From: Escherichia coli
GTDB lineage: Bacteria > Pseudomonadota > Gammaproteobacteria > Enterobacterales > Enterobacteriaceae
Direction: 5' to 3' (one strand)
NCBI RefSeq assembly: GCF_044647545.1
Contig: NZ_CP172818.1
DNA: 64,000 bases
Within the stretch, counting starts at the first letter, position 1. Every line of letters starts with the position of its first letter. The position numbers and the translations under genes were made by a program. This document shows positions 30,380 through 57,621 of the stretch, piece after piece. A model generated the notes under the pieces. The model was not told the DNA's origin, ran no database searches, and saw nothing but the letters and a program-made list of their open reading frames with translations.

Positions 30380-30422
30380 TAATCTCTCTGCAACCAAAGT
30401 GAACCAATGAGAGGCAACAAGA

Positions 30423-37242: not shown

Positions 37243-37291
37243 CGCCAGCGATTGTAATCACACTTGATATTATAAAACACAGTTGCACGCA

Positions 37292-37555
37292 TTATTTCCT
37301 GGTTGGTAGGGTCATATCTCGATGCTCTTTGAGCAATGTCAACATCGCGTGTTCATGGCTTTCTATATTGTTGATGCCTTGCCCATCCGGACCCCACTCC
37401 TTATAGCTCATCATGATGGCTTGTTTTGGGCTCTCTGCTCGTTCTGTTTCGACGTAGAATTTTTTCTTGTCTGCTGGCGAATAATTACTAAGTATCGAGT
37501 TGCTGCTTGGTGAGATCAGGAAGAGGTTACCGAAACGATGGACATCATCCCCCAT
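37292..37555 (-). CDS. yfjM: Hypothetical protein YfjM, 87 aa
   Basis: ORF track; divergent from rnlA. Confidence 0.7.
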
Positions 37556-37696
37556 TTTGTGGACTGCCCCCCCGGTAGACGATCCTGCCCTATAGTTGGA
37601 GTGCCCCCTATTCAGGTGGCTAAATTTAGCAAATCAATACACTTCAGGGGGGTATTATTGTAGAGTTTCCCCATATGTTTCTATGGGATCCAGGAA

Positions 37697-38770
37697 ATGA
37701 CAATCAGGAGTTACAAAAACTTAAATCTGGTCAGGGCAAATATCGAGACTGAATCCAGACAATTCATTGAAAATAAAAACTATTCAATCCAATCAATTGG
37801 TCCTATGCCAGGGTCAAGGGCTGGGCTTCGGGTCGTATTTACCAGACCAGGGGTTAACTTGGCAACTGTGGACATTTTTTATAACGGGGACGGTTCGACT
37901 ACAATTCAATATCTCACTGGAGCCAATCGTTCTCTGGGCCAAGAGTTAGCGGATCATCTTTTTGAAACCATCAATCCTGCTGAATTTGAGCAGGTAAATA
38001 TGGTACTGCAAGGATTTGTAGAGACAAGCGTTCTACCTGTACTTGAGCTATCAGCAGATGAATCGCATATAGAGTTCAGAGAACACTCTCGTAACGCTCA
38101 TACCGTAGTGTGGAAAATTATTTCCACCAGCTATCAGGACGAATTGACTGTGAGCCTGCATATCACAACAGGTAAGCTCCAGATTCAGGGCCGACCGCTG
38201 TCATGTTACAGAGTTTTCACGTTTAACTTGGCAGCCCTGCTTGATTTACAGGGTTTGGAGAAAGTGCTAATCCGCCAGGAGGATGGTAAAGCTAATATTG
38301 TTCAACAGGAGGTTGCCCGCACTTACTTGCAGACTGTAATGGCCGATGCTTACCCGCATCTCCACGTGACTGCCGAAAAATTGCTCGTTTCAGGGCTATG
38401 TGTTAAACTCGCCGCCCCTGATTTGCCTGACTACTGTATGTTACTTTATCCTGAACTACGCACCATTGAAGGTGTCTTAAAAAGTAAGATGAGTGGGTTA
38501 GGCATGCCAGTACAGCAGCCGGCAGGTTTTGGAACTTACTTTGATAAACCTGCTGCTCATTACATTCTGAAACCGCAATTTGCAGCTACTCTTAGACCGG
38601 AACAGATTAACATCATCAGCACAGCCTATACTTTTTTTAATGTGGAACGTCATTCTCTGTTCCACATGGAAACTGTGGTCGATGCCAGCCGTATGATTTC
38701 TGATATGGCCCGGTTGATGGGTAAAGCCACTAGAGCGTGGGGAATAATCAAGGACTTATATATTGTTTGA
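37697..38770 (+). CDS. rnlA: RnlA toxin (RNase LS endoribonuclease), 357 aa
   Basis: ORF track; translation MTIRSYKNLNLVRANIETESRQFIENKNY... recognised as RnlA. Confidence 0.92.
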   Translation: MTIRSYKNLNLVRANIETESRQFIENKNYSIQSIGPMPGSRAGLRVVFTRPGVNLATVDIFYNGDGSTTIQYLTGANRSLGQELADHLFETINPAEFEQVNMVLQGFVETSVLPVLELSADESHIEFREHSRNAHTVVWKIISTSYQDELTVSLHITTGKLQIQGRPLSCYRVFTFNLAALLDLQGLEKVLIRQEDGKANIVQQEVARTYLQTVMADAYPHLHVTAEKLLVSGLCVKLAAPDLPDYCMLLYPELRTIEGVLKSKMSGLGMPVQQPAGFGTYFDKPAAHYILKPQFAATLRPEQINIISTAYTFFNVERHSLFHMETVVDASRMISDMARLMGKATRAWGIIKDLYIV

Positions 38771-39134
38771 AATCACCGGAATTAACGTCTCAGGGGCTCT
38801 AAAAGCTGTCGTTATGGCGACCGGCTTCGAGAACCCTTTGTCCTCAGTTAATGAAATTGAGACGAAACTTTCTGCCCTACTGGGTAGTGAGACCACTGGT
38901 GAAATCCTTTTTGACCTCTTGTGCGCTAACGGTCCAGAGTGGAACCGCTTCGTTACGCTGGAAATGAAATATGGCCGGATCATGCTGGATACGGCCAAAA
39001 TTATTGATGAGCAGGACGTTCCGACACATATCCTGAGCAAACTGACTTTTACTTTACGTAATCATCCTGAGTACCTAGAAGCCTCTGTTTTGTCTCCCGA
39101 TGATGTACGCCAAGTCCTGTCAATGGATTTTTGA
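38763..39134 (+). CDS. rnlB: RnlB antitoxin, 123 aa
   Basis: ORF track (TTG start overlapping rnlA 3' end by 8 nt); translation (M)FEITGINVSGALKAVVMATGFENPL... Confidence 0.88.
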   Translation: MFEITGINVSGALKAVVMATGFENPLSSVNEIETKLSALLGSETTGEILFDLLCANGPEWNRFVTLEMKYGRIMLDTAKIIDEQDVPTHILSKLTFTLRNHPEYLEASVLSPDDVRQVLSMDF

Positions 39135-39488
39135 AACTCTTCTTTCTAAACGAACCAGTATAGAATTCGCCCTTTTGGCATGATATTAACTTGTCCAATA
39201 TGATCAAATAGCATTAACCCCCCCTCACAACGTCCTGCATAGGGAACACGTTTTCCCCTGTGCACCCACGACTAAATTTCCCCCCCTTTAAACTTCTCAA
39301 TAATGTCACCAATTTTCTGGAAATCCTATGATGCCTTTCCCGGTAAATGGTGCTGTGAGTTCAGAAAGATTCTGCAATCTATGTGCATTGAAAAAATCTT
39401 CAGATAGATATCATTCTCCTGAACAATCCGATGAACGGCAGAACCTCGCGGTTCTGCCGTTTTTGTTTTACTTTTCAGAGGAGTGGTG

Positions 39489-40352
39489 ATGAAAAATTTT
39501 GAAGTTCTGCAGCCACTACAGAACTCCCTTTCCGGTCTACCGCTATGGGTATCTGAACGTATATTGCAGCAGATAAATCAGTTAACCCACTACGAGCCAG
39601 TGATCGGCATCATGGGTAAAACTGGGGCGGGAAAGAGTAGCCTTTGCAATGCCCTGTTTGCCGGTGAAGTATCGCCGGTCAGCGATGTAGCGGCCTGTAC
39701 ACGTGATCCTTTACGCTTTCGCCTGCAGATTGGAGAACACTTTATGACCATCGTGGATCTGCCCGGCGTGGGCGAAAGTGGCGTTCGCGATACCGAGTAT
39801 GCTGCGCTGTACCGCGAACAACTTCCCCGGCTCGACCTGATTCTGTGGCTGATTAAGGCTGATGATCGGGCACTGGCGACTGATGAGCATTTTTACCGTC
39901 AGGTGATTGGCGAAGCATACCGGCATAAGATGCTGTTTGTTATCAGCCAGTCAGACAAAGCTGAACCCACCAGCGGTGGAAATATCCTTTCCACAGAGCA
40001 GAAACAAAATATCAGCCGCAAAATCTGCCTGCTGCATGAGCTATTCCAGCCCGTGCATCCGGTGTGTGCCGTGTCGGTTCGCCTGCAGTGGGGACTAAGG
40101 GTGATGGCAGAGCGGATGATTAAGTGTCTGCCGCGTGAGGCCAGCAGCCCGGTAGTAGCGCTACTGCAACATCCCTTTCGAACAACGGTAGCCCGGGAGC
40201 AGGCACGTGACGATTTCGGTGAAACCGTAGGTGCCATACTCGATACGGTAAGCACCTTTCCCCTTATTCCCGCCCCGGTGCGGACCATTATTCAGGCCGT
40301 GCGTTCCTCGGTGGTGTCAGTGGCCCGCGCTGTCTGGGATTTCTTCTTCTGA
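39489..40352 (+). CDS. yfjP: YfjP, prophage P-loop GTPase (YeeP/YkfA family), 287 aa
   Basis: ORF 39483-40352; ATG at 39489 five nt after GAGGAG; G1 motif GKTGAGKSS, DLPG G3 motif. Confidence 0.88.
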   Translation: MKNFEVLQPLQNSLSGLPLWVSERILQQINQLTHYEPVIGIMGKTGAGKSSLCNALFAGEVSPVSDVAACTRDPLRFRLQIGEHFMTIVDLPGVGESGVRDTEYAALYREQLPRLDLILWLIKADDRALATDEHFYRQVIGEAYRHKMLFVISQSDKAEPTSGGNILSTEQKQNISRKICLLHELFQPVHPVCAVSVRLQWGLRVMAERMIKCLPREASSPVVALLQHPFRTTVAREQARDDFGETVGAILDTVSTFPLIPAPVRTIIQAVRSSVVSVARAVWDFFF

Positions 40353-40380
40353 GTGTTTAATTCTGCCCTATTATTCTCCG

Positions 40381-40412
40381 AGCCCTGTCGCAAGTGCGGC
40401 AGGGCTTTCTTT
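40381..40412 (+). terminator. Rho-independent terminator after yfjP
   Basis: AGCCCTG-TCGCAAGTGCGG-CAGGGCT followed by TTCTTTATTT. Confidence 0.7.
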
Positions 40413-40443
40413 ATTTGTTTTACCCATACTGAGGAGTCTGCTT

Positions 40444-41263
40444 ATGACCCGTCTGGCTTCGCGCTTTGGCGCTGCAAACCAGATACGCCGTGACCGTCCG
40501 CTGACACATGAAGAACTGATACGCCATGTACCCAGTATTTTTGGGGAAGACCGGCACATCCCGCAGTGAACGGTATGCGTACATTCCCACCATTACCGTC
40601 CTGGAAAATCTGCAGCGGGAAGGCTTTCAGCCGTTCTTCGCCTGCCAGACCCGTGTGCGCGACCCGGGCCGCCGGGGATACACAAAACACATGCTGCGTC
40701 TGCGGCGGGCCGGAGAGATAAACGGAGAACATGTCCCTGAAATTATTCTGCTCAACTCTCATGACGGTACCTCCAGCTACCAGATGCTGCCGGGTTACTT
40801 CAGGTTCGTCTGCCAGAACGGGTGCGTCTGTGGCCAGTCTCTGGGGGAAGTGCGTGTTCCACACCGGGGAAATGTAGTGGAGAAAGTTATCGAAGGGGCT
40901 TACGAGGTGGTGGGCGTGTTTGACCGGATAGAGGAGAAGCGTGATGCCATGCAGTCGCTGGTCCTGCCGCCACCGGCACGCCAGGCGCTGGCACAGGCGG
41001 CACTGACTTACCGTTATGGTGACGAACATCAGCCCGTCACCACCGCCGACATTCTGACGCCGCGACGCCGGGAGGATTACGGTAAGGACCTGTGGAGCGC
41101 ATATCAGACCATCCAGGAGAATATGCTGAAAGGCGGGATTTCCGGTCGCAGTGCCAGAGGAAAACGTATCCATACCCGGGCCATTCACAGCATTGATACC
41201 GACATTAAGCTCAATCGCGCATTGTGGGTGATGGCAGAAACACTGCTCACGCAACTGCAGTAG
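40444..41263 (+). pseudogene. yfjQ: yfjQ (DUF932 family), apparently disrupted: 41-codon N-terminal frame ends at 40567, remaining 245 codons are in the +1 frame from 40526
   Basis: ATG 40444 with GAGGAG RBS encodes MTRLASRFGAANQIRRDRPLTHEELIRHVPSIFGEDRHIPQ-stop; the long ORF 40526-41263 is in a different frame; the total span (820 nt) is not a multiple of 3. Confidence 0.6.
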
Positions 41264-43392: not shown

Positions 43393-43784
43393 CGGCTGCG
43401 CCTTCCCTACCATAACAACCCTGATTGCCTCCGGCGGTCGGGGGTTTCTTTTTTCTCCTTAATCTCCAGAGGTAGGCCACGTACTTTCGAACGATGAGCG
43501 CAGTGGTCAGTTTTTTTCAGATATATTTATCTTTTTTTGGCTGTAAGCTCCGCTGTGAGCGCAGGCTGTGTGAAAACTCCTGATCACTTCTTGGTCTAAG
43601 CGATGGTTTCATATGATCAACCATTCTTGATAAACCCATGCGACGAACTGACTTTTTCATTAAAATTAGAAATATACGAATGAATACTGCGGATACCGAC
43701 ATGGCCAATCACATTCAAGGACAAGGCAGGCACCAGGTGACATTACTCCCTGATGCACTGGATGATTTTGTCACTGAAGATAAC

Positions 43785-43931
43785 TTAAGTAAGTTTAATC
43801 AGTTCATCACGGGTCGGTGGCATATCGAGATAATTAATTATTGTCGGTTCGTTGCCGTTGTTATGAAGCATCTCCAGCGTGTTGCGTGAGGTGCCACAGG
43901 CCGGGTTGTGATAGATGGTAATGTTGCTCAT
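43785..43931 (-). pseudogene. yfjU: Arsenate reductase ArsC N-terminal fragment (48 codons)
   Basis: Minus-strand translation MSNITIYHNPACGTSRNTLEMLHNNGNEPTIINYLDMPPTRDELIKLT-stop, the ArsC N-terminus with the catalytic Cys, truncated. Confidence 0.8.
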
Positions 43932-45094: not shown

Positions 45095-46798
45095 ATGGCT
45101 TTTGTATCAGAAAGAGAAATTGTAAGAAAGATATTTAGCAAAAAAATTGACTTTACGATCTTGGCATTTTTCTATATTTCCTCTATTTTTTTTCTTCTTT
45201 GTAGTGGCGTTCTCTTTCAATATTTTACCGCTGCCTTCACAAAAGGTAATTGTTATGAATGCTCAATGAAACTTGATTACATAAAACAATTTTATTTTTC
45301 ACTGGAAACCGCATGGTACCTCATATCTGCTGTTGCAGTATTTATTGCATCTGTTTTTATACAGCATAGAATTAAAGCTTATTTAACATTATTAGCTATT
45401 ACATGGATTGTACTAACAATAACAGATGTGGCGTTAATACACGCCTTAGACAATATAGCCATGAATAATATTTTGTTAAATATACTATATAATCTTTTTG
45501 GGGCGATTTTATTGTCACTGTTTATGTGTTTATCAAATTCCCTCCTTTTCCACCTTAATAAGATAAAACATATTCCAATGATTTTATCGGCAATGATTCC
45601 ATTAGTTTCCGCAATAATAATAGCCATACTCATAACCGCTGTTATATATTTATTGTTTGCCCGGCAGGCGGTAGAGATTGAGATGGATATATCTGAAGGT
45701 TCAGACATCGCATATGTAGGTGTAAAAGATAATGAGGAATCATTTGGGTTTTTAAATGATAAAAAAACAGACACACCAACGTATCTGGATGTAATCAAAA
45801 ATGGTAGTTTGATATATAATGATACACAGGGTTTAAGTGGTGCTGATATTTATATTGTCTCCGGTTGTTATGCCCTTCCAGATTTACTTCGCAATGTACC
45901 GCTTGATGCTAAAAAATCTTTTCTGAATGTAAAAAAGCTAGAAATCACACAGAAACTTCCAATGATGGGGTTCATACAAGGTGAATCCGCTGATGTGATG
46001 CCTAAAGCAGCATCCAGGTTAAGTTTGAGCAAGCAAGATGATAAATTTATGCTAGCCTCAAGTGTTACTGACTCTCAAATAAAATTTAAATCAAACAATG
46101 CACAATTGATGGTTGCTTTCGCATTTATGCCAATAACAACGAATGGTATTTTACATGATTATACATACGATATAATAATAAATGATAAAAAATATAAAAT
46201 TGAAAATCATGTTGCACCTCTATCTAGGCTTGATAAAAATAAGAAGATGAAGTGTGAATACCAGCAAATATCGGATTTAACAAATACGTATAACATTAAT
46301 GCAAATTACTTAACGGGTTTTTTACTTGTCCTAAAACCAGATGATATTATTAATTACAACAATAGCCCTTCCGTACTACTCAAGACTGATTTTGCGTTCT
46401 ATAAAAAAACATACCAGAAGCTTGATAAAATATATGATGACATAAGCAATGGAAAATTATCTTCACTGAGAGCAACAGGTATCTCCCAGTTTAGTATCAA
46501 CGGGAAACATTTGTCGTTAAGGCCAGAATCGGAGATTATTATTTCTGAAGGGAGTTTGTATGGACTAGTTAATAAAAGCAAAAAAATCAAAATATATGGC
46601 ACAGCAGATCTTGTTTTTGTTGATAACAAGATAATGAACCTTCGTAAAATAACTTATTTGCAATCTAAGCTAGAAATTTTTGGTTCTTCTATTATGGATA
46701 TATTAAAGTATATATTTGGTTTAGGTCTGCTAGCAATTTCTATAAAATTCATTCATTCTTACTTTAAGAATGATGTGAATGAAAATTTATTCTTGTAA
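45095..46798 (+). CDS. yfjW: YfjW, 567 aa, N-terminal polytopic membrane domain plus large C-terminal domain of unknown function; strongly AT-rich
   Basis: ORF track; about five hydrophobic helices in the first ~190 residues; A/T-rich codon usage unlike the core genome. Confidence 0.85.
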   Translation: MAFVSEREIVRKIFSKKIDFTILAFFYISSIFFLLCSGVLFQYFTAAFTKGNCYECSMKLDYIKQFYFSLETAWYLISAVAVFIASVFIQHRIKAYLTLLAITWIVLTITDVALIHALDNIAMNNILLNILYNLFGAILLSLFMCLSNSLLFHLNKIKHIPMILSAMIPLVSAIIIAILITAVIYLLFARQAVEIEMDISEGSDIAYVGVKDNEESFGFLNDKKTDTPTYLDVIKNGSLIYNDTQGLSGADIYIVSGCYALPDLLRNVPLDAKKSFLNVKKLEITQKLPMMGFIQGESADVMPKAASRLSLSKQDDKFMLASSVTDSQIKFKSNNAQLMVAFAFMPITTNGILHDYTYDIIINDKKYKIENHVAPLSRLDKNKKMKCEYQQISDLTNTYNINANYLTGFLLVLKPDDIINYNNSPSVLLKTDFAFYKKTYQKLDKIYDDISNGKLSSLRATGISQFSINGKHLSLRPESEIIISEGSLYGLVNKSKKIKIYGTADLVFVDNKIMNLRKITYLQSKLEIFGSSIMDILKYIFGLGLLAISIKFIHSYFKNDVNENLFL

Positions 46799-46805
46799 CG
46801 CATTT

Positions 46806-46826
46806 GGCTCCAATTGGAGCCTTTTT
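46806..46826 (+). terminator. Rho-independent terminator after yfjW
   Basis: GGCTCCAATTGGAGCC hairpin followed by TTTTT. Confidence 0.8.
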
Positions 46827-47227
46827 ATGACTATTTATTAAAATATCCTAAGTTAAGCCTGTTTTTAAAGCAGGCTTGAGCGTGAAGCGGACACTCATAC
46901 CTGCTTTAAAGTGGCGTTTTTGTCGTTACCCATACCTATATTTTCTGTTGTTTAACTGCCAGAACTGAGCGGTTGAAAAGCCAGAAATATGCCGAGCCAG
47001 CGGCATGGAAGCGCCAGCAGCTGTTGAATGGAGTACTGTAGGCAAATGGTGCCGTAACCGGCTTTCGTACTGAAAGGTTCTGTCTATCCCATCCCTTCTC
47101 TTGTATCTAACATTTAGTTGTGAATAGCTACTGTAAATGCCCCTACAAAATGAACCATTATTTTTAGAGGGCGTCTGGCACTCCAACTTCCGCTTTTGGC
47201 ACAGAACGGCCTATCAGCAATATAAAA

Positions 47228-47345
47228 GCATTCAGATATATATCATTTCTACAAACATACCCGATTAACGGCAGAATCTCAGGATTCTGCCGCTTTTTTA
47301 TTATTTTTCAGGGGAGTAGTAATGAGCAACTCTGAAGGTTGGTAG
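47228..47345 (+). other. Remnant of a second yfjP-like GTPase gene: conserved 5' leader with hairpin plus a truncated 7-codon ORF
   Basis: 47228-47321 is about 80 percent identical to the yfjP leader 39405-39488, including the CGGCAGAA...TTCTGCCG hairpin and the RBS; ATG 47322 encodes MSNSEGW-stop. Confidence 0.7.
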
Positions 47346-47695
47346 TCATTTTAGCAAACGCTTTCTGGTCTGCCGCAGTGGGCATCGGCTGATTGCGTAG
47401 CAGGGCCACTGGTATCTGCCGGTATCACCGACATTAACATTGAAGACGACCAGGGCATTCACGTCCGCCTGATAGTTCGTGATGCCGAAGGTCGGATGGT
47501 TGGCGGGCATGGAACTTTGAACCGGACGCCGGTGAAGGTTTTAACCGCTATATCCACAGGTCAGGCATCCGCACCGACACCTTCCCCCGCTGACTCCGAA
47601 TCATTTACCAGCAACATTTCACCTTCCCAAACGCGCTTTATTACCTCATACGCCAGCCATCGCCGCTGGCGTTTTTTATTCACGGAGACATACCC

Positions 47696-48154
47696 ATGAC
47701 AACACAGACACAGTACGACCTCGTACCCGCTAACGGATCCGAATTTGAGTTGAGCGTAACGCAGGTACCCGATGAACAGCATATCCGCTTCTGGCCGCAG
47801 CACTTTGGCACCATCCCGCAGTGGATAACGCTGGAACCGCGCATTTTCGCCTGGATGGACCGCTTCTGTGATGAGTACTGCGGGGGTATCTGGTCCTTTT
47901 ACACGCTCAGCAATGGCGGAGCGTTTATGGCTCCTGATGCTGACGGTGACGATAAATGGCATTTGCTCAACGGCATGAATGGCAATGGTGCGGAAATGAG
48001 CGCGGAAGCCGCAGGTATCGCTGTCTGCCTGATTGAATATAGCCATCACGCCTGCCTCACCGAATGCGATGCCATGACGGAGCACTATTACCGCCTGCGG
48101 GATTACGCTCTGCAGCACCCTGAATCCAGCGCCATTATGCGCATTATTGATTAA
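47696..48154 (+). CDS. yfjX: YfjX, antirestriction protein (ArdB/KlcA family), 152 aa
   Basis: ORF track; translation MTTQTQYDLVPANGSEFELSVTQVPDEQHIRFWPQHFGTIPQWITLEPRIFAWMDRFCDEY... Confidence 0.88.
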   Translation: MTTQTQYDLVPANGSEFELSVTQVPDEQHIRFWPQHFGTIPQWITLEPRIFAWMDRFCDEYCGGIWSFYTLSNGGAFMAPDADGDDKWHLLNGMNGNGAEMSAEAAGIAVCLIEYSHHACLTECDAMTEHYYRLRDYALQHPESSAIMRIID

Positions 48155-48162
48155 GGATACTC

Positions 48163-48645
48163 ATGATGGAACAGTCACTCATCCCACAGACACCGGTACT
48201 TCCACTGACCGCACAACGCACGGTAAAACGCGCCTTAACGCTGCTTGACCGACACCTGCGCGAAACAGGCGTGGCATTCACCTCCACTCAGGCTGCTCGT
48301 GACTGGCTGAAGCTGAAAATGGCGGGGCTGGAGCGTGAAGAATTTATGATGCTGTATCTGAACCAGCAGAACCAGTTGATTGCCCACGAAACCCTGTTTG
48401 CCGGTTCTATTAGCAGTACCGAGGTACATCCCCGTGAGGTGGTCAAACGCGCCCTGTATTTCAATGCAGCAGCAGTGATACTGGCGCATAACCACCCCTC
48501 CGGCGACACTACTCCCAGCCAGGCAGATAAGACTATAACGCAGCGTCTGGTGCAGGCGCTTCAGCTCGTTGATATCCGTGTCCCTGACCATCTGATTGTT
48601 GGTGGCAGGCAAATCTATTCGTTCGCAGAACACGGTCTGCTTTGA
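48163..48645 (+). CDS. yfjY: YfjY, RadC-like JAB/MPN domain protein, 160 aa
   Basis: ORF track; JAMM-like motif HNHPSGDTTPSQAD. Confidence 0.88.
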   Translation: MMEQSLIPQTPVLPLTAQRTVKRALTLLDRHLRETGVAFTSTQAARDWLKLKMAGLEREEFMMLYLNQQNQLIAHETLFAGSISSTEVHPREVVKRALYFNAAAVILAHNHPSGDTTPSQADKTITQRLVQALQLVDIRVPDHLIVGGRQIYSFAEHGLL

Positions 48646-48653
48646 GGTATTAC

Positions 48654-48854
48654 ATGAGAATTATCAGTAAACGCCGGGCAATGACGATATACCGCCAGCA
48701 TCCTGAGTCCCGAATCTTTCGCTACTGCACCGGAAAATATCAGTGGCACGGTAGCGTCTGTCATTACACCGGCAGGGATGTTCCGGATATCACAGGAGTC
48801 CTGGCTGTGTACGCCGAACGCCGCAGGACCGCAGCGGACCGTATGCTTGACTGA
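48654..48854 (+). CDS. ypjJ: YpjJ, DUF987 protein (YeeT paralog), 66 aa
   Basis: ORF 48642-48854; ATG at 48654; translation MRIISKRRAMTIYRQHPESRIFRYCTGKYQWHG... Confidence 0.75.
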   Translation: MRIISKRRAMTIYRQHPESRIFRYCTGKYQWHGSVCHYTGRDVPDITGVLAVYAERRRTAADRMLD

Positions 48855-48891
48855 TGAGTATCACCCTGAACTGACAATAAAGAGGTTATGA

Positions 48892-49209
48892 ATGAGCAAC
48901 ACCACATGGGGCCTGCAGCGAGATATCACGCCGCGCCTGGGAGCACGTCTGGTGCAGGAGGGCAACCAGCTGCACTATCTGGCTGACCGGGCCAGTATCA
49001 CCGGTAAGTTTAGTGACGCCGAATGTCCTAAGCTGGATGTGGTATTTCCACATTTTATCAGCCAGATAGAGTCGATGCTGACCACTGGTGAACTGAATCC
49101 CCGCCATGCCCAATGCGTCACCCTGTACCACAACGGTTTTACCTGCGAAGCCGATACTCTTGGTAGTTGCGGCTACGTATACATCGCTGTTTACCCCACT
49201 CAACGCTAA
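48892..49209 (+). CDS. yfjZ: YfjZ, CbeA-family type IV antitoxin, 105 aa
   Basis: ORF track; translation [58 protein letters not shown]... Confidence 0.88.
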
Positions 49210-49229
49210 CTAATTTCACGAGAGCAAGC

Positions 49230-49559
49230 ATGAACACTCTACCTGCTACAATTTCGCAGGCGGCGAAGCCCTGCCTGTCGCCAGTGGCTGTCTGGCAAAT
49301 GCTACTGACACGCCTGCTGGAACAACACTATGGCCTGACACTGAACGACACGCCGTTCAGTGATGAAACTGTTATTAAGGAACATATCGATGCTGGTATC
49401 ACTCTGGCCGATGCAGTCAATTTTCTGGTGGAAAAGTACGAACTGGTACGTATCGATCACAGAGGATTTTCGTGGCAACAACAGTCTCCATATATTTCCG
49501 TAGTAGATATTCTGCGAGCAAGGCGCTCTACCGGCTTGCTAAAAACTAATGTGAAATAA
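49230..49559 (+). CDS. ypjF: YpjF, CbtA-family type IV toxin (cytoskeleton-targeting), 109 aa
   Basis: In-frame ATG 49230 within ORF 49167-49559; translation [57 protein letters not shown]... Confidence 0.85.
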
Positions 49560-49740
49560 ACGCTTAAATACAGAGCAGACTGAAGGAAAGCAAAATGCTA
49601 ATCTCATAGACGAAGAGACTCCCGCTGTAACCTCCCCTCCCCCGAAAAAACCTGACATTTTCTTTTAGGACCAACAATGGGACCAAAATGAAAATTGAAC
49701 TGAAGATTACAATCAATTTAACAACAAGTTACACAACCAA

Positions 49741-49764
49741 TTCAACTCCCGCCAGCTCCACCAA
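49741..49764. repeat. attR: 24-bp direct repeat identical to the ssrA 3' end
   Basis: TTCAACTCCCGCCAGCTCCACCAA, exact match to 27712-27735. Confidence 0.9.
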
Positions 49765-49923
49765 TCATGATTGGACGGTGTAAGGACAACACCAATAAAA
49801 ACAGGAAGTTAGCAGTCTCAGCAGGACACCGACCAGACGGTGAGGAGACAAAAAAGGATACGCAAAGGAGCCGCGGCCCCTGGTGATATGAAAGCCCACA
49901 GATGTGGGCTTTTTCGTTGATGG

Positions 49924-52900
49924 TCAGAACGACCAGTTCACACCAGCCACTGCGTTCCACGGGGATTCCACACCGGCACCATGGCTATACCCCACCCCGA
50001 GATGCCCGCTTAACGAACTGCTGAATGAGGCTTTAATACCTGCCTGGTATATTCCACGTCTGCCCGACAAATCATTGACAAAATTACCGTCATTATTCAC
50101 TTTCACCCGGTTATCATCGACAAATTCTTTGCGCACAGCCGCCTTCAGCCACGGCTCAACTTCCATGCCGTTCCCCAGACGCATGTTGTAACTCAGCGTT
50201 GCGCCCAGTTCACGATATATACTGCGGGTATCGACTGATTTCGATTCCATGCCATTGGATAAATGATATTCGGGGTTATCAGCGGTGAACCCCGTTAACG
50301 ATGCATACGGCGTCAGGTTCCAGTTACCATCGGTAAATCGCATCCCGGTTTCAATGTGACCACCCAGCCCGTTGCTGCGATAACTGCCGTTGGCGGCTCC
50401 ACCGCTGCTCATTTTACCGGCTACGTTACTTTCAAAGCGGTTCAGCTTCACGATACCGTCCAGATAGAAACCACTTTCATGTTCCCAGCTGGCATAGCCC
50501 CCCAGAGAATAACTGCCCACACTGCCATGTCCTCCACGATCAAAACCGATATGTGAATGGGAATAACCCATAAAAGCGCCCAGCGTCGCAATCCCCTCAG
50601 GAATATCATTACGGCTATCGATCCCCACCGTCATTCCGGTCAGCGTCTGCTCAAACCCGGCACCCGCATCGGTGGTGACATTATTACGGGTGTTATACGT
50701 CGTCCCCCAGACATTATTGTTGTGTGGACTCGCTTTCATTATGTTCAACCGCTCGCGAATACTGTTTAGCTCAGCATCAAAGACCAACGGTAATGTTGCT
50801 GCCATATTGAGTACGGCTGCCGTAGAAGGCGTGATGCGTTTCTCCGGGACGGGTGTCGGCGTTGGATCGGGAGTCGGGTCTGGTTTCGGATCCGGTTTTG
50901 GGTCTGGTTTTGGATCCGGCTTCGGATTTGGGTTGGGGTCCGGGTTGGGTTTGACATCATTGGTCAGGTTCCAGTTGCTGTTGCCGTCGCTTTTCAGGAC
51001 ATACTCATAGGTCCCAAGATCAACGAAACCGCCGGTATTACCCAGCGTAAACGAAGCATCCCCTCCCCCTGTTTTCACCAGCGTCATCGCGTCGTCAGAC
51101 TGAGGGCTGACGCCGGTATCCTGAACAAAGATTTTAAAATTACCAGTGGCGTTGTTGTTGACGACCAGTTGATCGCCCCGGGAGCCTGCAACGTTGGTAT
51201 GCAGGTAGAAATTACCGCTGCCGGAAAGTTCACTGGTTGTCAGCGTATTGTAGATACCGTTAGTTGTGGCAGGCGCTGCTGTTTGTGCTGATAAATAAAC
51301 ATCACCGTCGTTGAGGAGCAAACTGTTTACTCTATATTCGCAGTTGCTGGTACCTGCACAGGAATTATTGCTGTTAAGCCAGACACTGCCCCGGCTGGCA
51401 GCCGTCAGGTCGGTAAGCGTCGTATCGACGCCATTTCCGATAGTTAATGTCGCGCTATCGGTAATCCGGATCGCCCCTTCGAGTTTAACTGGCGTAACAT
51501 TATCCCGTGGCGTCATTAACGACAGGCTTCCTGTCGCGCCACTGACCGATGCATCCGCCAGCGTACCTGCATAGACGATTGCCGTCCCGCCAGCGACCTG
51601 GAGATCTTCTGCCCGGGCCAGAGCCTGAAACTCATCTTTTGACCGCCCAAGGGTATATTGCCCGCCAGAGTTAACCTTTGTGGCGGAGTCCTGACCCAGG
51701 TTTTGCATTGCACCACCCTTGCCAACCTTGGAGTCACGGGCTTCGGTACCTGCTAATACCAATAAATTACCGCCATTTTCCAGCAACATATTGGTCGCTA
51801 AATTGCCGGCAATGGAAAAGGTACCGTACTGGTGAGTACCGCTGATTTCAATACCGTTAGCCGTGCTCGTATGGAGAGCGGCACCGCTGTTCTGGATGAT
51901 ATCTGTCGCTTTGCCATTATCGTTGACTGTCAGCGTACCGCCTTCATTAATCGTTGTTTTTACTGCCTCACCGTTAGCCGAAACTGTTTGTATTCCGCCG
52001 TCGTTAATCGTTGTCTCATTCGCCACCCCCTCGACGATTTGTTCGCCGCCGGTGAGCGTCGTGCCTGTCGCAGTGGCTTTTGTTTTGACGATCTCCCGCC
52101 CGCCCGCATTGACCTGTGTTTTGGCGGAAGTGGTGTCTGACTCCACGGTTAACACGCCGCCATTTGCCAGCAGGATATTGTTCGCCGCACCCTGCTCGAT
52201 GCTGAACGCGACGCCATCAGCGCGTGTCCCTGTGACCCGCGTCGCTCTGGTGGTTGCAACCAACGCGCCCTGGCTACTTTGCTGTATCCCCGTTGCGCTG
52301 CCTTTCTCCCGCACATCGAGAGTGCCGCCGTCATTAAGCACCGAGTTTTCAGCCAGACCGCCCTCATTAACTACCTGTGAACCGCCATTAATAATGGAAC
52401 CTTCCGCTGTCCCGTTTACCATAATTTGTTGTAGGCCAGAGACGATATCGGTATTGATCGCCTTACCATAATTCTGAACGGTTTGCGTGCCGCCTTTGAT
52501 GTGCGTTTTATCTGTTGACCCACCATCAACAATTTGTTCACCACTTTCGATATTTGCCTCAGTGGCTAAACCATATACCGTTTGCTTGCCACCTTTGATA
52601 TTTGCTTTTTCAGAAGTGGCACTGGCATATATTGTTTGGGTACCCGCACTATTAAGTACAGTACCAACATCTTTTCCATAAACATCCATTTTGCCGTTGG
52701 CATTAATAATCGTGTCAACTGCCCGGGAACCAGTGACGACTGTTAATGAGCCAGCGTTTTCCAGCACTACATTTTTAGCTTCTGAATTCCTGATGTAGAA
52801 AGCATCACCATAACTGTTGGTTCCTTCGATAAGTGTTCCGGAGGTCGTGGAAGCAATTAATGCGCCGCCGGATTGTTGCTCAACATGCTTAGCCTCACCA

Positions 52901-54501
52901 CCGTCCTGAACCTCCAGAACGCCGCCATTATTAAGTCTGGTGCTATCTGTTTTAGCCTCCTTCTGGACAATCAGCTTACCGCCAGCATCAATGGTAGTAT
53001 TTTTCGCCGAGGTTTTAGCCACTACCGTCAGTTCGCCGGTATTTTCCAGCACAACATAATTAGCCTCCCCTCCGATAATAGTGAAGCGAGAGAGCTTGTT
53101 GTATCCTTCGATATCAGTCCCTGCGCCCGTGTTGGCAACTAAAGCACTGCCCGTCTCCTGGTTAACCCCATGTGCAATACCGCCGGTATAGACAATCAGC
53201 GAGCCTCCAGCGCTAATATTGCTGCCAGTTGCCGTACCATCTTTCTCAACAATCTGCCGGCTCCCGGAGGATATATTTGTCGTGTCAGCTTTCCCGCCGC
53301 TCTTGATATTTTGCGTTCCACTGTTGATATTGGTGCCAGTGGCAATACCATGATTATTAATATTCTGTGTACCACCATTGATTATGGTATTGGTCGCGTT
53401 TCCGGCGACATCCATAACCCCGCCATTATCTATTCGGGTCGCATCAGCTTTAGCATTCGTTAAAACTGACATTGTTCCTTTATCTTTAATTATCGTCCTG
53501 GTTGCCGAACCATATACGTCTAAATGACCACCATTTTCCAGCAACACATTGTCTGCCACGTTATTGTGGATGGAGAATGCCCCTTCACTATTCGTACCGC
53601 TCACCGTCAAATCGTAAGTCGTTACTTTTAAAGCGGCTCCATCGTGCTGAGTAACATTTGTTGCCATACCACCTCTAACATCAAGCACGCCACCGGAATA
53701 AATTTCAATAACATCCGAGGTGCTGGTGTAATCAACAATTTGCGTACCACCAGAATAGATCTGCGTATTTTTTGCCGTTGAATTACTATTCAGAGACTGA
53801 GTTCCGCCTTCAATCGTAGTGTCCAGCGCACGGCTCTCATATACTCTTTGCTCACCGCCATTTTTGATGGTGGTTGTTTCTACTGTGCTCTGTTCAACAT
53901 ACTGTCGACCACCATTTATGGTTGTGTTCGTTGCCAGACTTCCTTGTACTACGTCCTGAGAGCCAGACTTATTTATCGTTGTACTGTCGACATGCCCCTG
54001 AGTTGTTACTCGTTGGCTGCCACCATCAATGATTGTTCCATTCGCAGTCCCCCCACTTATGTGTGAATTACCCCCCTTAATTGTCGTTCCATTGCTGATA
54101 CCACCTGTATAAACGTCCTGATTGCCACTCTCGATTATTGTACCTGTGGAAATACCCCCGTCATGAATTGTCTGTCTGCCCCCGTTAATGGTTGTATTAT
54201 TAGCCTGCCCCACATAATTGTTATGACGTCCTATATCTTGATATCCACCAGATTCAATAAGACTTTCATTAGATATCCCACCATAAACATTCTGCTGGCC
54301 ATGGTTGATAATATGAGTGTTATTTGTTGTACCTCGTTCATCTACTTTTTGGCTGCCATCTACAGTCTCATCGTTTACCACACCAATAACATCAGGAGTG
54401 AAGGCCGCCATCCCGGGCGGGGCATATATCAAGGCAGATATCAATAAGGAAAGTACTGAGCGGCGACAATAATGGAGATTGGTCCTGTTCATAAATTTCA
54501 T
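49924..54501 (-). CDS. ypjA: YpjA, AIDA/adhesin-like autotransporter (about 1520 aa; start ambiguous among 54492, 54501, 54621)
   Basis: ORF 49924-54621; extended signal peptide, long repetitive beta-helix-like passenger (GG/NxT-rich repeats), Pro-rich PDPK linker, C-terminal beta-barrel ending in an aromatic residue (WSF). Confidence 0.9.
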   Translation of the reverse strand: MKFMNRTNLHYCRRSVLSLLISALIYAPPGMAAFTPDVIGVVNDETVDGSQKVDERGTTNNTHIINHGQQNVYGGISNESLIESGGYQDIGRHNNYVGQANNTTINGGRQTIHDGGISTGTIIESGNQDVYTGGISNGTTIKGGNSHISGGTANGTIIDGGSQRVTTQGHVDSTTINKSGSQDVVQGSLATNTTINGGRQYVEQSTVETTTIKNGGEQRVYESRALDTTIEGGTQSLNSNSTAKNTQIYSGGTQIVDYTSTSDVIEIYSGGVLDVRGGMATNVTQHDGAALKVTTYDLTVSGTNSEGAFSIHNNVADNVLLENGGHLDVYGSATRTIIKDKGTMSVLTNAKADATRIDNGGVMDVAGNATNTIINGGTQNINNHGIATGTNINSGTQNIKSGGKADTTNISSGSRQIVEKDGTATGSNISAGGSLIVYTGGIAHGVNQETGSALVANTGAGTDIEGYNKLSRFTIIGGEANYVVLENTGELTVVAKTSAKNTTIDAGGKLIVQKEAKTDSTRLNNGGVLEVQDGGEAKHVEQQSGGALIASTTSGTLIEGTNSYGDAFYIRNSEAKNVVLENAGSLTVVTGSRAVDTIINANGKMDVYGKDVGTVLNSAGTQTIYASATSEKANIKGGKQTVYGLATEANIESGEQIVDGGSTDKTHIKGGTQTVQNYGKAINTDIVSGLQQIMVNGTAEGSIINGGSQVVNEGGLAENSVLNDGGTLDVREKGSATGIQQSSQGALVATTRATRVTGTRADGVAFSIEQGAANNILLANGGVLTVESDTTSAKTQVNAGGREIVKTKATATGTTLTGGEQIVEGVANETTINDGGIQTVSANGEAVKTTINEGGTLTVNDNGKATDIIQNSGAALHTSTANGIEISGTHQYGTFSIAGNLATNMLLENGGNLLVLAGTEARDSKVGKGGAMQNLGQDSATKVNSGGQYTLGRSKDEFQALARAEDLQVAGGTAIVYAGTLADASVSGATGSLSLMTPRDNVTPVKLEGAIRITDSATLTIGNGVDTTLTDLTAASRGSVWLNSNNSCAGTSNCEYRVNSLLLNDGDVYLSAQTAAPATTNGIYNTLTTSELSGSGNFYLHTNVAGSRGDQLVVNNNATGNFKIFVQDTGVSPQSDDAMTLVKTGGGDASFTLGNTGGFVDLGTYEYVLKSDGNSNWNLTNDVKPNPDPNPNPKPDPKPDPKPDPKPDPTPDPTPTPVPEKRITPSTAAVLNMAATLPLVFDAELNSIRERLNIMKASPHNNNVWGTTYNTRNNVTTDAGAGFEQTLTGMTVGIDSRNDIPEGIATLGAFMGYSHSHIGFDRGGHGSVGSYSLGGYASWEHESGFYLDGIVKLNRFESNVAGKMSSGGAANGSYRSNGLGGHIETGMRFTDGNWNLTPYASLTGFTADNPEYHLSNGMESKSVDTRSIYRELGATLSYNMRLGNGMEVEPWLKAAVRKEFVDDNRVKVNNDGNFVNDLSGRRGIYQAGIKASFSSSLSGHLGVGYSHGAGVESPWNAVAGVNWSF

Positions 54502-54830
54502 CCTCTGAAAAGTGAATACTGAGTAGCGTTTAAGCGACCTTAGCTTTGCTGCAACATCAGCCCACAGGCACCAGACCAGGGGATTCATCCTGAAGAGACA
54601 GCGCAAGTGTATTGTGTTCACCGCTCATCAAAGACATCATGATGAAATGATGATATTCCGCATAAGAATGAGGCATTTTTTAAACGCAGTGCGCTGAAGT
54701 GTGGTTGGATAAAAAAGTCAATCTATTCAGGAAACACGGACGTATTCTTTTCTTTCGACAATCAGGCAGTCGGCAAAATAAAATGATTTACATAATCGTT
54801 TCTGATGAATATCTTCTGCTCACATAAAAA

Positions 54831-55097
54831 TCACACAATAACTCTGAGATCGCAGATTGTTTTACTTTTACAGCTTCCGTCCCCCCATTGTTGGGCAAAT
54901 ATAGATTGGGCCAGAGCACGAAAGTTAATACCACGTTTGCACAGCTCCTCCAACAGCACGACAAGATGCCACATACTGCGCCCCAGTCGGTTCAGTTTAC
55001 AGACTAGCAGTGCGTCCCCTACCGATAATGTCCTGAGCCGTTTGTTCTGTCCGGGCCTGCTGCCACGGTTATGCGCTGCAGTGGTAACTCTAAGCAC
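54831..55097 (-). pseudogene. pinH: Serine invertase (Pin/Hin family) fragment
   Basis: 88-aa ORF with ...GDALLVCKLNRLGRSMWHLVVLLEELCKRGINFRAL..., resembling the middle of Pin-type recombinases; lacks the N-terminal catalytic Ser region and the C-terminal HTH. Confidence 0.7.
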
Positions 55098-55426
55098 GCA
55101 GTTATTCAGTCAGGCGTGGTGCACCGTAACGCTGGTATTGCTGGGTAAGATCAAAAAACTTTCAAGCAGCTAAGGAAAGTTGAACCAGACATTAGATGAA
55201 ATATTTCAACCAATTACAGCACCAGTTCAGACACCGCCAACTCATCAAATAAATCAAGGGGTTACGTGAAAGCGCAGCCCCTTTTACTTTGGTAGTGGCA
55301 GCAAAAGGGTTGTAGTGTAAAGGATAATTCCGTTTAATCAGCCAACAATATATATTATTTCAATCTACGTTATTATCTCTTTTAAAAATAGCCATTTATT
55401 TATCATTGAAAACTGCTTTTAGAACT

Positions 55427-56865
55427 TTATACAAGGGGACTATTCTCCACGGGATCATCCTTAGTGGAAGGATCATCAAAGTCATCATCCATAAATAAAA
55501 TATCATCGAATGGTGCCACGCCCGTGATGAGTTTTATTTTTTTATTACGATCAGACAAGACTCCACTTAAACCGTTTTCGCTGACGCGTTCTAATGATTT
55601 TTCATAACTCTCATTGTTAGCAGGCGTATTAAAAATACACGGAGTATCAACATCAAACAATGACGTCCCCCAGTTCACATATTTAATATCATAGTTACTG
55701 AAGTTCTGTCCAGAAAAGAAGCACCCCTTAAAGTCCAATCCACCTAAATTGTATAAACAACCCTCTTCTTTTGGGAGAGTAATTTTAATTCTGGCTATCT
55801 CCCAGACAAAATTGCCATTTTTGTATTTGAATACCGTTTCAAGATCTCCTCCAGACAGCTTGACTTCTGGAAATAATTTGAAATTAAACCCTACATTATT
55901 ATGTGTCAACGTAGATGAACAAAAGATGGAAAAAGCTTGCAGTGCTGAATTATAGCTATCGATTTTATCTTGAGGCTGCGCTCTTGGTAAAAACTTATAG
56001 CAACACTCATAAAAATTAAGTAGAAACTCTGATGACCTTCCATTTTTATCAAATAATACCCGCTGAAAATGCTGCACAAACTTATTCGTTTTTTCTTGAA
56101 TATCTACGGTGTGTTCCTTTGACTCTGACAAAGATGGAGCCTGTTGAAGTGCATTGCTCATCTGGTTAATGAACATGTGCATTTCTTTAAATTTATCTCC
56201 ATAGTGACCTTTAACTTGCTGCGAGTTTTTAGCTACAGGTGAAATCTTATCTATTTGGTTGTCATATAAATTATGTGATTCCATACAGTCATTTGGCGGC
56301 GTTTCTGAAATAACACTACGTGTTCTACCTGGCTGAAGTGAAGCAACATGAAAATCACTTTTTATTATATTATCGAAAAGGGCCTGTTCATTTTTTTAGC
56401 GGATTGAACATACTGATCAATATTATTTTCTCTCGATAATTTGTTATTTTCAGAAAACACATTTTCTTTAATCTCCGGTTTTAATTTAATGAGAAGATTT
56501 TCCCACTCCTGCTTGCTTAAACATACTACGTCAGGCTCACCATCAGTAACTAACTCTTCATTATTATCAAAGTGTACGTTGAATACTTTTAAGTTATTTT
56601 CATCAACATCATATTTAATACGTTTTAATTGTTCTCCAGCTCCCATAATGACAAAGGCGTTGCCTTCTTGATATATACATTCAGACATTATTTTTTGTAA
56701 AGTTTCAAGAGCACCGCGATACATCCCTGAGGCAGCTTCCTTACAAATTAAATTTATAATACTATAAGCTAGTAGCTCCATGGGGTTGGAAGAATTGTTT
56801 TCATTACAACTTCCACTACCCAAAACTGTATTAACGTTATGACCATTACTTTTACTAACTAACAT
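55427..56865 (-). pseudogene. ypjC: AT-rich hypothetical gene split by a frameshift into 166-aa and 285-aa ORFs (ypjC-like; symbol uncertain)
   Basis: ORFs 56365-56865 and 55427-56284 are collinear on the minus strand in different frames, separated by about 80 nt containing a T7 homopolymer (56391-56397). Confidence 0.65.
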
Positions 56866-57621
56866 TGTCTATTCCTCAGTTAATGTCTACATGGCTATGT
56901 TTAACGTTATTACTGTTTGTCATTATAAAAAACCGCTCATTTGAGACAATTGCTGACATTAACTGTTTCACTTGCTACGCATGGACTTTTTAATTAAATT
57001 AGCACAAGAATGTTAAATTTAATAAACAAAAAGTTATTTCGCTGTATGATAAAAACCAACCGTTATGATTTATTAGTGGAATTCGTTTTTCGAGTGTTAG
57101 AAATTTATATCTAAATAGCGTTAATTAATGAGCAAAGCCAGACTCCTGTAACGCTCATAAGACTCATCTGCCTGCGACGGGTGGTCTGGTCAGTAGTAGA
57201 TGTTTAAGGCGTGGCAGAGACATTTCATCCTTACTCTACGGCATTGGTCCACATACAAATCGTGGTTGTGACACTTCACTTATCATCAGTGAGCGAACAG
57301 AGAATAGTTCAGTGATTTGAGTAATTAACCTGATTAAATGAAAAGGCATGATAAATGATAATACTCTGGCTTTATCGTTAATTACTTAATTCCACATGTA
57401 AGCAATTTGCCCGCTTGGCATAGCGGGCATTTTTTCCAGGTACTTTTGAATGAGTACTGATGGATAAATACATTGCAGTGGCGTGCCACGTACCAAAACA
57501 CCAGCCCTCATTCGAAACCACCTACCGCACTGCTTCTTTAAAATGGCGTTAGTCGTGAAATATTGACCGCCATCGAGTCCCCCTTGTAACCTTAACTCTT
57601 CCTGATACATGAATGATGATT

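Follow-up and report, generated by a model that had tools for sequence, protein, structure and literature searches.

Identity and layout of the gene block

The five tightly packed genes at 47696-49559 of the window, a 64,000-nucleotide stretch of Escherichia coli DNA, are in all likelihood the operon yfjX-yfjY-ypjJ-yfjZ-ypjF (lfgABCDE) in its K-12 sequence, placed at the attR end of a CP4-57 island integrated at ssrA; this high confidence covers the whole account, including the functions of the products and the roles that we propose for them. The locus is an already known and characterised K-12 operon, an ordinary one, and the preliminary description identified it correctly.

All five open reading frames lie on the + strand with spacers of 8, 8, 37 and 20 nt; the tight same-strand packing described earlier is upheld, and the gaps of 9-40 nt given with it are replaced by these values. 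A purine-rich Shine-Dalgarno-like stretch can be read from the sequence 5-10 nt before each of the five start codons. Pairwise comparison with copies on Citrobacter and Klebsiella plasmids gives dN/dS values of 0.07-0.22 for all five genes, which indicates that they are real protein-coding genes. Identity to K-12 MG1655 is 100% over 46799-49744, with zero differences in the five genes, the spacers and the 897 nt upstream, and the RefSeq names of the genes are lfgA, lfgB, ypjJ, yfjZ and ypjF. This identity, together with the Pfam and structure matches given below, confirms the five gene assignments first made.

The scan of 47696-49559 found neither a terminator-like nor a strong promoter-like site on the + strand. 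A search of 46500-50200 against Rfam at E <= 1 returned chance-level matches only (Histone3, mir-7918 and rsmX), far below gathering scores, which places no known RNA family within the block or next to it, and none of the five proteins matched a PADLOC defence model at E <= 0.01. Opposite yfjX, yfjY and yfjZ lie antisense ORFs of 185, 132 and 105 aa; none of them matches a Pfam family, and they were rejected as mirror artefacts.

Position at the right end of CP4-57

The tmRNA gene lies at 27372-27734, and a 24-nt direct repeat, TTCAACTCCCGCCAGCTCCACCAA, occurs at its 3' end (27712-27735, the attL core) and again at 49741-49764, 22,029 bp away. The second copy, found by repeat search, reproduces the ssrA 3' end perfectly and constitutes the attR core; it starts 181 nt after the ypjF stop, which bears out the right-end placement of the block. 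The right junction is sharp: identity to ST648-type chromosomes resumes exactly at 49741, and identity to K-12 stops at 49745. The island does not differ from that of K-12 over 27736-40478, where intA lies in K-12, in keeping with CP4-57 integrated at ssrA. Over about 21 kb the island has no substitutions relative to K-12, and two patches elsewhere in it differ.

The operon is nucleotide-identical to that of K-12 CP4-57, adjoins attR and is flanked by yfjW upstream and ypjA downstream in both strains, but the surroundings differ: the chromosome here is ST648-type, and its attR is perfect (24/24) where that of K-12 is degenerate. Sequenced relatives of this chromosome have an empty ssrA site. 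The combination of island and backbone was absent from the complete E. coli genomes searched, in which the right junction is matched at best at 99.6-99.7% and the variable middle at 98.9%.

The 181 nt from the ypjF stop to attR contain no significant fold and no terminator, and the 371-nt segment 49560-49930 gave z = -0.99. Beyond ypjF, a hairpin followed by a T-run is first met on the + strand at about 49892-49916, outside the island. A terminator-like hairpin at 27795-27809 is one that we take to be the ssrA terminator. This hairpin sits between the att core and intA and was the reason for rejecting the idea that, in the excised circle, intA is driven by read-through from the operon across attP.

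Properties of the five products

The first gene, yfjX (lfgA; 47696..48154, + strand), encodes a 152-aa antirestriction protein of the ArdB/KlcA family. It matches the Antirestrict profile (PF03230) at 6.9e-40 over positions 2-92 of 92, and among solved structures it matches ArdB of E. coli CFT073 (PDB 2WJ9) at 4.8e-72 and KlcA (2KMG) at 8.9e-23. The identical K-12 protein relieves restriction in vivo 6160-, 10-, 251- and 1650-fold for types IA, IB, IC and ID, leaves modification intact (anti-modification of about 1 against EcoKI) and does not inhibit EcoKI in vitro (PMC2836571). ArdB from pKM101, R64 and the CFT073 PAI-II and KlcA from IncP share the Pfam family and the fold of YfjX. YfjX differs in being carried by a chromosomal island and not by a plasmid, and R64 ArdB inhibits BlihIA in vitro (PMC12429846), unlike YfjX with EcoKI (PMC2836571).

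The product of yfjY (lfgB; 48163..48645, + strand) is a short RadC-like JAB/MPN protein of 160 aa that matches the RadC profile (PF04002) at 2e-46 and a RadC homolog of known structure (PDB 2QLC) at 1.4e-26, and that scores above the TIGR00608 cutoff. The metal-site motif HxHx7SxxD noted earlier is present as HNHPSGDTTPSQAD at residues 109-122 (nt 48487-48528). Against the full-length RadC equivalog model NF000642, YfjY scores 165.7, below the cutoff of 180, and aligns to profile positions 71-211 of 212 only, so that it lacks the N-terminal portion found in canonical RadC. Judged by sequence, YfjY is a short island-type RadC-like protein and not the housekeeping RadC/YicR equivalog. Under the name LfgB it is reported to degrade MqsA as a protease; this result comes from an overnight in vitro digest in one laboratory, in which contaminating proteases are possible (PMC10846083). 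An independent analysis has argued for nucleic acids or nucleotides as the substrates of RadC-type JAB domains (PMC5512222). The earlier statement that the function of the RadC-like member is not established is thus partly dated, although other proteases were not strictly excluded in the MqsA digest (PMC10846083).

The third gene, ypjJ (48654..48854, + strand), starts with the ATG at 48654 (the frame is open from a TTG at 48642 as well) and encodes a DUF987 protein of 66 aa, which matches PF06174 at 4.9e-41 over profile positions 1-65 of 65. Alignment of the DNA to a Citrobacter copy reveals that 1 nt has been deleted near 48823 and that the ancestral frame contains a TGA. The intact 73-aa frame of most DUF987 members is therefore lost, and the last nine residues of YpjJ lie outside the consensus frame. 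K-12 YkfH and YeeT are 73 aa long, and YpjJ, frameshifted at 66 aa, differs in this respect from these relatives in CP4-6 (YkfH) and CP4-44 (YeeT); many other members of the family are likewise frame-shifted at the C-terminus. The dN/dS of ypjJ is 0.14-0.18. Homologues of DUF987 are confined to the Enterobacterales and mostly exceed 65% identity, a family too narrow for a deep alignment. YpjJ has no relative among solved structures; an AlphaFold2 model built on a 28-sequence alignment reached pLDDT 65 and pTM 0.45, and a Foldseek search of the PDB returned nothing below E = 3.6, so these provide no usable fold assignment. In one published antirepressor test YpjJ failed.

The last two genes form an antitoxin-then-toxin pair separated by 20 nt: yfjZ (48892..49209, + strand) encodes a CbeA-family type IV antitoxin of 105 aa (CbeA_antitoxin, PF06154, 2.5e-52) and ypjF (49230..49559, + strand) a CbtA-family toxin of 109 aa (CbtA_toxin, PF06755, 2.6e-67). 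Two structures deposited as yfjZ (PDB 2EA9 and 2JN7) match residues 1-105 of YfjZ at about 3e-71. YpjF is toxic, blocks both elongation and division, produces lemon-shaped cells and targets the H6/H7 loop of FtsZ as well as the flat face of MreB (PMC5624674, PMC5371832). The F65S substitution abolishes its binding to FtsZ (PMC5624674), and F65 is present here, as is C15, the residue found in K-12 YpjF. In a two-plasmid system YfjZ counters YpjF, YkfI and CbtA; its neutralisation of YpjF is partial, and lemon-shape formation is stopped neither by YfjZ nor by the whole five-gene clone (PMC5371832). The three genes upstream of yfjZ-ypjF do not neutralise the toxin (PMC5371832). An antitoxin that forms no complex with its toxin and instead bundles filaments has been demonstrated for CbeA only (PMC5371832); by homology to CbeA, YfjZ probably bundles and stabilises FtsZ and MreB filaments instead of binding the toxin. 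In published work, antitoxin-gene deletion strains were viable enough for a biofilm assay.

The sequence upstream of yfjX

A terminator scan located a hairpin, ACGCCAGC-CATCGCC-GCTGGCGT, followed by a T-run, at 47650..47679 on the + strand. Its stem ends at 47672, 23 nt ahead of the yfjX ATG, and it folds with an energy of -16.8 kcal/mol (z = -4.25). Eight diverged copies share the core GCCAGC...GCTGGC and the T-run without change, even where the remaining spacer fails to align. Covariation support was sought in the same eight copies and the claim was dropped: positions are invariant or change in ways that break pairs, and none of the changes is compensatory, so the conservation is at the level of sequence and the structure is putative. 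The scan found no consensus promoter upstream of yfjX.

Further upstream lies a DUF905 pseudogene remnant (ypjI; 47433..47593, + strand), annotated in RefSeq as frameshifted and partial in the identical K-12 sequence; an intact DUF905 homologue in L002 aligns to it. A published MqsA-related motif, ACCGGACGCCGGT, falls inside the remnant at 47521-47533, and a motif ACATTAACAT at 47431-47440 spans the 5' end annotated for the remnant and can be aligned to coding sequence of DUF905. MqsA binds upstream of the operon, and an insertion in lfgA has a polar effect on lfgB (PMC10846083).

From this arrangement we propose that the five genes would be co-transcribed from upstream sequence, and that the path of RNA polymerase may run through the conserved terminator-like hairpin, which would keep basal expression low. 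If the findings of the one laboratory hold, YfjY would act as a zinc-site JAB enzyme that degrades MqsA, the antitoxin and repressor that binds upstream of the operon.

Relatives of the block

Diverged copies on plasmids of Citrobacter and Klebsiella keep the order ArdB-RadC-DUF987-CbeA-CbtA, and 5385 of 5426 complete E. coli genomes contain matches to parts of the 2.5-kb region 47400-49950; the earlier designation of the block as a conserved module holds on these grounds. The same order and families are found in CP4-6 (yafX-ykfG-ykfH-yafW-ykfI) and CP4-44 (yeeS-yeeT-cbeA-cbtA), the products of the three islands are 64-95% similar, and their antitoxins cross-neutralise the toxins (PMC5371832). 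CP4-44 and CP4-57 have only four of the five neighbouring genes in common, and the cbeA-cbtA spacer is 88 nt as against 20 nt for yfjZ-ypjF (PMC5371832). Fuller copies carry DUF932, WYL, YpjK, YfjS, YkfB and DUF905 upstream and DUF5983 and DUF957 downstream. The conserved block thus extends beyond the five genes, and it is truncated in this island, where the latter two genes are missing downstream. Homologues of CbtA occur in one of 50,697 phage records, and this near absence makes the term prophage a misnomer.

The anti-defence sets in the leading regions of conjugative plasmids likewise combine an antirestriction gene with small uncharacterised genes near one end of the element, and RadC domains are typical of proteins of conjugative elements (PMC5512222). 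An F-like type IV secretion system translocates 32 chromosomal proteins when these are fused to Cre, YfjX and YfjZ among them (PMC11288057). Unlike plasmid leading regions, the sequence beside the block showed no origin of transfer, relaxase, ssb or psiB. We know of no transfer route for CP4-57.

The role of the block

We infer that the block is what is left of a larger conserved gene set on islands of the P4-integrase type. Its ancestral role may have been twofold, with antirestriction aiding the element on entry and the toxin and its antidote aiding persistence, and the translocation of YfjX and YfjZ is counted as support for the role in entry. Weighing against the account are the incomplete action of YfjZ, the failure of the three upstream genes to neutralise the toxin, the viability of antitoxin-gene deletions, the doubts about the LfgB digest, the partial decay of the locus and the absence of PADLOC matches. 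"Establishment module" and "addiction system", the labels applied earlier, are likewise terms that we only infer for the CP4-57 block. In a stronger form of this proposal, the block from ArdB to CbtA is a working kit for entry and persistence of islands that are still moving between E. coli lineages, and the hairpin could gate it; the block might, for example, be off while the island is resident and be switched on by read-through on entry or stress. The absence of substitutions in CP4-57, the perfect att repeats, the empty site in ST648-type relatives and the secretion of YfjX and YfjZ all point in this direction, and we nevertheless regard the stronger form as a long shot.

A role for the block as a domesticated host stress module has some experimental support, and we consider it a minor, rather unlikely, possibility. 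Here LfgB would degrade MqsA, rpoS would be derepressed and the cell protected against peroxide, acid and heat, with antirestriction and the toxin-antitoxin pair secondary. An lfgB deletion raised death in 20 mM H2O2 to 91% from 14% in the wild type and was complemented, MqsA binds upstream, and purified LfgB degrades MqsA (PMC10846083); deletion of all three cbtA-family toxin genes is also reported to lower resistance to oxidative stress. Against this, the proteolysis comes from one laboratory and an overnight digest in which other proteases are not excluded (PMC10846083), and the block is conserved on plasmids and islands of Citrobacter and Klebsiella. Furthermore, the MqsA site is at and within the DUF905 remnant, a stretch that codes for protein in intact copies, and cannot therefore be an ancestral operator.

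The frameshift at the C-terminus of ypjJ and the DUF905 pseudogene indicate that the locus is partly decayed, and one may ask whether it is a largely silent remnant whose genes are intact by recent descent and have no current role in the host. The stop in the ancestral frame of ypjJ, the loss of the downstream DUF5983 and DUF957 genes, and the terminator-like hairpin just before yfjX with no consensus promoter found upstream are consistent with such silence. The dN/dS values, however, speak for long-term purifying selection in the family, the four ORFs other than ypjJ are full length, and deletion phenotypes and stress induction have been reported (PMC10846083); we hold this explanation to be unlikely.

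An integrated five-component system, in which YfjY and YpjJ partner the toxin-antitoxin pair, for instance by controlling the level of antitoxin or toxin, seems to us improbable: the RadC-DUF987-CbeA-CbtA order is strict, with gaps of 8-37 nt even where CbtA is only about 60% identical, DUF987 is restricted to the Enterobacterales and found in this block in every copy examined, and an antitoxin gene lies beside the gene of a JAB enzyme for which degradation of a different antitoxin is reported (PMC10846083), but the five-gene clones of CP4-6 and CP4-57 are as toxic as the toxin-antitoxin pairs alone (PMC5371832) and YpjJ, like many DUF987 members, is frameshifted.

The value of the locus as a discovery is small, with the antirestriction protein, the toxin and the antitoxin characterised and a recent function claimed for the RadC-like gene; the checks put forward in the preliminary description are all already published for these exact proteins (PMC10846083, PMC5371832, PMC2836571, PMC5624674). 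Returning to the entry and persistence role that we propose, the window supplies a natural example of an island acquired recently, a K-12 CP4-57 on an ST648-type chromosome, which is usable for testing whether the block serves in the establishment and persistence of its island.

Identity and coding content of the block

Our analysis identifies the five-gene block at 47696-49559 as a known, named and experimentally studied operon of E. coli K-12. Among 5,426 complete E. coli genomes searched with megablast, K-12 strains match and have the region annotated as lfgA, lfgB, ypjJ, yfjZ and ypjF; against MG1655 there are 0 differences in the five genes, their spacers and 897 nt of upstream sequence, the first differences appearing at 49745. 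ARAGORN places the tmRNA gene at 27372-27734, and the 24 nt at its 3' end are perfectly repeated 22,029 bp downstream, at 49741-49764, a position 181 nt past the ypjF stop codon. As the attL and attR cores of CP4-57, the P4-integrase-type island in ssrA, these two repeats put the block at the right end of the island, where the preliminary description had placed it. The interpretation offered there is essentially right and its gene calls are correct; the locus is nonetheless already known.

All five ORFs lie on the + strand, and each protein has a single strong Pfam match far above the curated cutoff: yfjX (lfgA; 47696-48154, 152 aa; Antirestrict, 6.9e-40), yfjY (lfgB; 48163-48645, 160 aa; RadC, 2e-46), ypjJ (48654-48854, 66 aa from ATG; DUF987, 4.9e-41), yfjZ (48892-49209, 105 aa; CbeA_antitoxin, 2.5e-52) and ypjF (49230-49559, 109 aa from ATG; CbtA_toxin, 2.6e-67). 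The packing is as tight as first described, but the spacers measure 8, 8, 37 and 20 nt rather than 9-40 nt. Inspection of the sequence finds a purine-rich ribosome-binding stretch 5' of all five start codons. Codon-level comparison with two diverged plasmid copies, from Citrobacter and Klebsiella, gives dN/dS values of 0.07-0.22 in all five genes, and all five, the tiny DUF987 ORF included, are therefore real coding genes; long opposite-strand ORFs across the block have no family match.

Structure-database searches agree with the ArdB/KlcA, RadC-like and CbeA assignments. YfjX matches ArdB of CFT073 (2WJ9, 4.8e-72) and KlcA (2KMG, 8.9e-23), YfjY matches the RadC homolog 2QLC (1.4e-26), and residues 1-105 of YfjZ match 2EA9 and 2JN7, both deposited as yfjZ; the same search returned no solved relative for YpjJ or YpjF. 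The JAB motif quoted for the second protein, HNHPSGDTTPSQAD, is present at residues 109-122. YfjY falls under the cutoff of the NCBIfam RadC equivalog and covers only profile positions 71-211 of 212, which shows that it is not the full-length housekeeping RadC. None of the five proteins (0/5) matches a PADLOC defence model.

Conservation and trimming of the module

The block had been described as a conserved module, and the comparative data bear this out. Parts of the 2.5 kb at 47400-49950 are matched in 5,385 of the 5,426 genomes, with a median of 2 matching places per genome and a maximum of 7, and the gene order is kept in plasmids of other genera. A Citrobacter plasmid carries, in order, genes for a GTPase, DUF932, WYL, YpjK, YfjS, YkfB, DUF905, antirestriction, RadC, DUF987, CbeA and CbtA, while a Klebsiella plasmid whose CbtA is ~60% identical carries antirestriction (with one small extra gene), RadC, DUF987, CbeA and CbtA, with DUF5983 and DUF957 next in line. 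The conserved unit thus extends beyond the five genes. Only 66 of 72,556 plasmids and 1 of 50,697 phage records contain a CbtA homologue, which makes this a module of chromosomal integrative islands rather than of phages.

Against these copies, that of CP4-57 is a trimmed version in three ways. Its DUF905 gene is a frameshifted remnant, annotated as a pseudogene at 47433-47593; DUF5983 and DUF957 are absent downstream; and in ypjJ the loss of 1 nt near 48823, together with a TGA in the ancestral frame, leaves 66 aa where 73 are usual. Many database members of the DUF987 family have C-termini that represent the same DNA in another frame, so that the last third of the protein is repeatedly frame-shifted, while the first ~45 residues are highly conserved.

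The conserved backbone seems also to hold cargo. The gene just upstream of the module, yfjW (45095-46798), has 29-36% G+C, against 52-55% in the five-gene block, and looks like a separately acquired insert. Between its terminator (46806-46821) and a second strong terminator-like hairpin on the + strand (47269-47292; 10 pairs and a T-run), ~440 nt within 46826-47292 are gene-free in the K-12 RefSeq annotation; ORFs of 86 aa (- strand) and 43 aa (+ strand) in this interval have no Pfam match. Elsewhere in the island, the 8-nt unit GCACTATG is repeated in tandem about six times (37183-37246), and no difference from K-12 was found there.

Transcription and regulation

Because a scan of 47696-49559 found no terminator-like or promoter-like site on the + strand, we infer that the block forms a single transcript, which would be driven from upstream. 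A strong terminator-like hairpin on the + strand (47650-47672, with a T-run to 47679; -16.8 kcal/mol, z = -4.25) stops 23 nt short of the yfjX ATG, too close for a promoter to fit between, so that transcription must start upstream of it. Eight diverged copies of the DUF905-antirestriction junction preserve the hairpin, T-run and ribosome-binding region almost unchanged, the remaining spacer being diverged or unalignable; no compensatory pair changes occur in the hairpin among these copies. We propose that it may be an intercistronic attenuator parting the genes on the DUF905 side from those running from ArdB to CbtA. No terminator was found inside the island between ypjF and attR; past ypjF, a + strand hairpin with a T-run first occurs at 49892-49916 (AAAGCCCACAGATGTGGGCTTTTT), outside the island and adjoining the ypjA stop codon.

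Both published MqsA-related motifs upstream of lfgA correspond to DUF905 coding sequence in intact copies. One, the ACCG-N5-CGGT palindrome ACCGGACGCCGGT (47521-47533), is within the DUF905 remnant; the other, the MqsA footprint motif ACATTAACAT (47431-47440), spans the remnant's annotated 5' end. Regulation by MqsA would therefore act through a site particular to the decayed copy and not ancestral.

Published functions of the block proteins

Published work on these same proteins already covers every test put forward in the preliminary description. Antirestriction was demonstrated by Serfiotis-Mitsa et al., who cloned K-12 yfjX, encoding the identical protein, and found type IA, IB, IC and ID restriction relieved 6160-, 10-, 251- and 1650-fold in vivo, with negligible effect on modification by types IA-IC, and a slight (18.6-fold) effect on type ID, while EcoKI was not inhibited in vitro (PMC2836571). 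The proposed toxin-antitoxin pairing holds in part: in the work of Wen et al., YpjF proved toxic, producing lemon-shaped cells, and was neutralised by YfjZ, YafW and CbeA in a two-plasmid system, but YfjZ in cis lowers the toxicity only slightly, and it remains in a clone with all five genes near attR (PMC5371832). YpjF binds the H6/H7 loop of FtsZ and MreB, F65S abolishing FtsZ binding (Heller et al., PMC5624674); F65 is present in the window copy. YfjX thus relieves type I restriction in vivo and YpjF blocks FtsZ and MreB, with YfjZ an incomplete counter that, by homology, would probably act like CbeA, bundling the target filaments rather than binding the toxin.

Wood and co-workers named the operon lfgABCDE and reported that it is induced under peroxide, that an lfgA insertion is polar on lfgB, that MqsA binds upstream, and that purified LfgB degrades MqsA, other proteases in the preparation being not strictly excluded by the authors (PMC10846083). 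LfgB would accordingly degrade MqsA and MqsA would repress the operon, each having been reported once. Iyer et al. argue that proteins are a less likely substrate of RadC-type JAB domains than nucleic acids or nucleotides (PMC5512222). An FsoA-like antirepressor role had been suggested for YpjJ, YeeT and YkfH, but the three left the dicB promoter unaffected (PMC10448788). The 32 chromosomal proteins that passed, when fused to Cre, through an F-like type IV secretion system include YfjX and YfjZ (PMC11288057).

The roles of 'establishment' and 'addiction' ascribed to the block are putative: antitoxin-gene deletion strains were viable enough for assay, and paralogous antitoxins cross-protect (PMC5371832).

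Probable recent acquisition of the island

The window does not come from a K-12 chromosome. Strain ST648 matches its flanks at 99.97% (8800-27735) and 100% (49741-64000) identity; in that strain ssrA directly adjoins ypjA and the attachment site is empty. In the right flank ARAGORN calls a tRNA-Met (anticodon CAT) at 57622-57697; in the corresponding region of K-12 and ST648 RefSeq annotates tRNA-Ile. This is probably ileY, whose CAT anticodon specifies Ile once modified to lysidine.

Between the flanks the island is identical to K-12 save for two patches. The first (40479-41222; 226 differences) covers most of yfjQ with a different yfjQ/DUF932 allele, as if replaced by a paralogous one; the second (43572-43789; 16 differences) lies between yfjT and the arsC-like pseudogene. 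The closest relatives come from poultry: isolates BS-04 (98.9%) and BS-01 (97.8%).

The sequence switches from ST648-type to K-12-type inside the att cores, between 27691 and 27736 at the left end and between 49741 and 49745 at the right; this is the signature of site-specific integration, not of homologous exchange of the flanks. The attR of K-12 is degenerate (TTCAGACTCCGCCAGCCCACCAA), that of the window a perfect 24/24 repeat, and the combination of a K-12-type island with ST648-type flanks is absent from the complete E. coli genomes in the collection. This copy adds no new handle on the long-recognised questions of the short RadC-like protein's true activity, of any DUF987 activity and of the block's role in island entry and persistence, save for the natural acquisition event itself. 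Unless it arose in the laboratory, the combination suggests that the supposedly cryptic CP4-57 has recently been acquired by site-specific integration.
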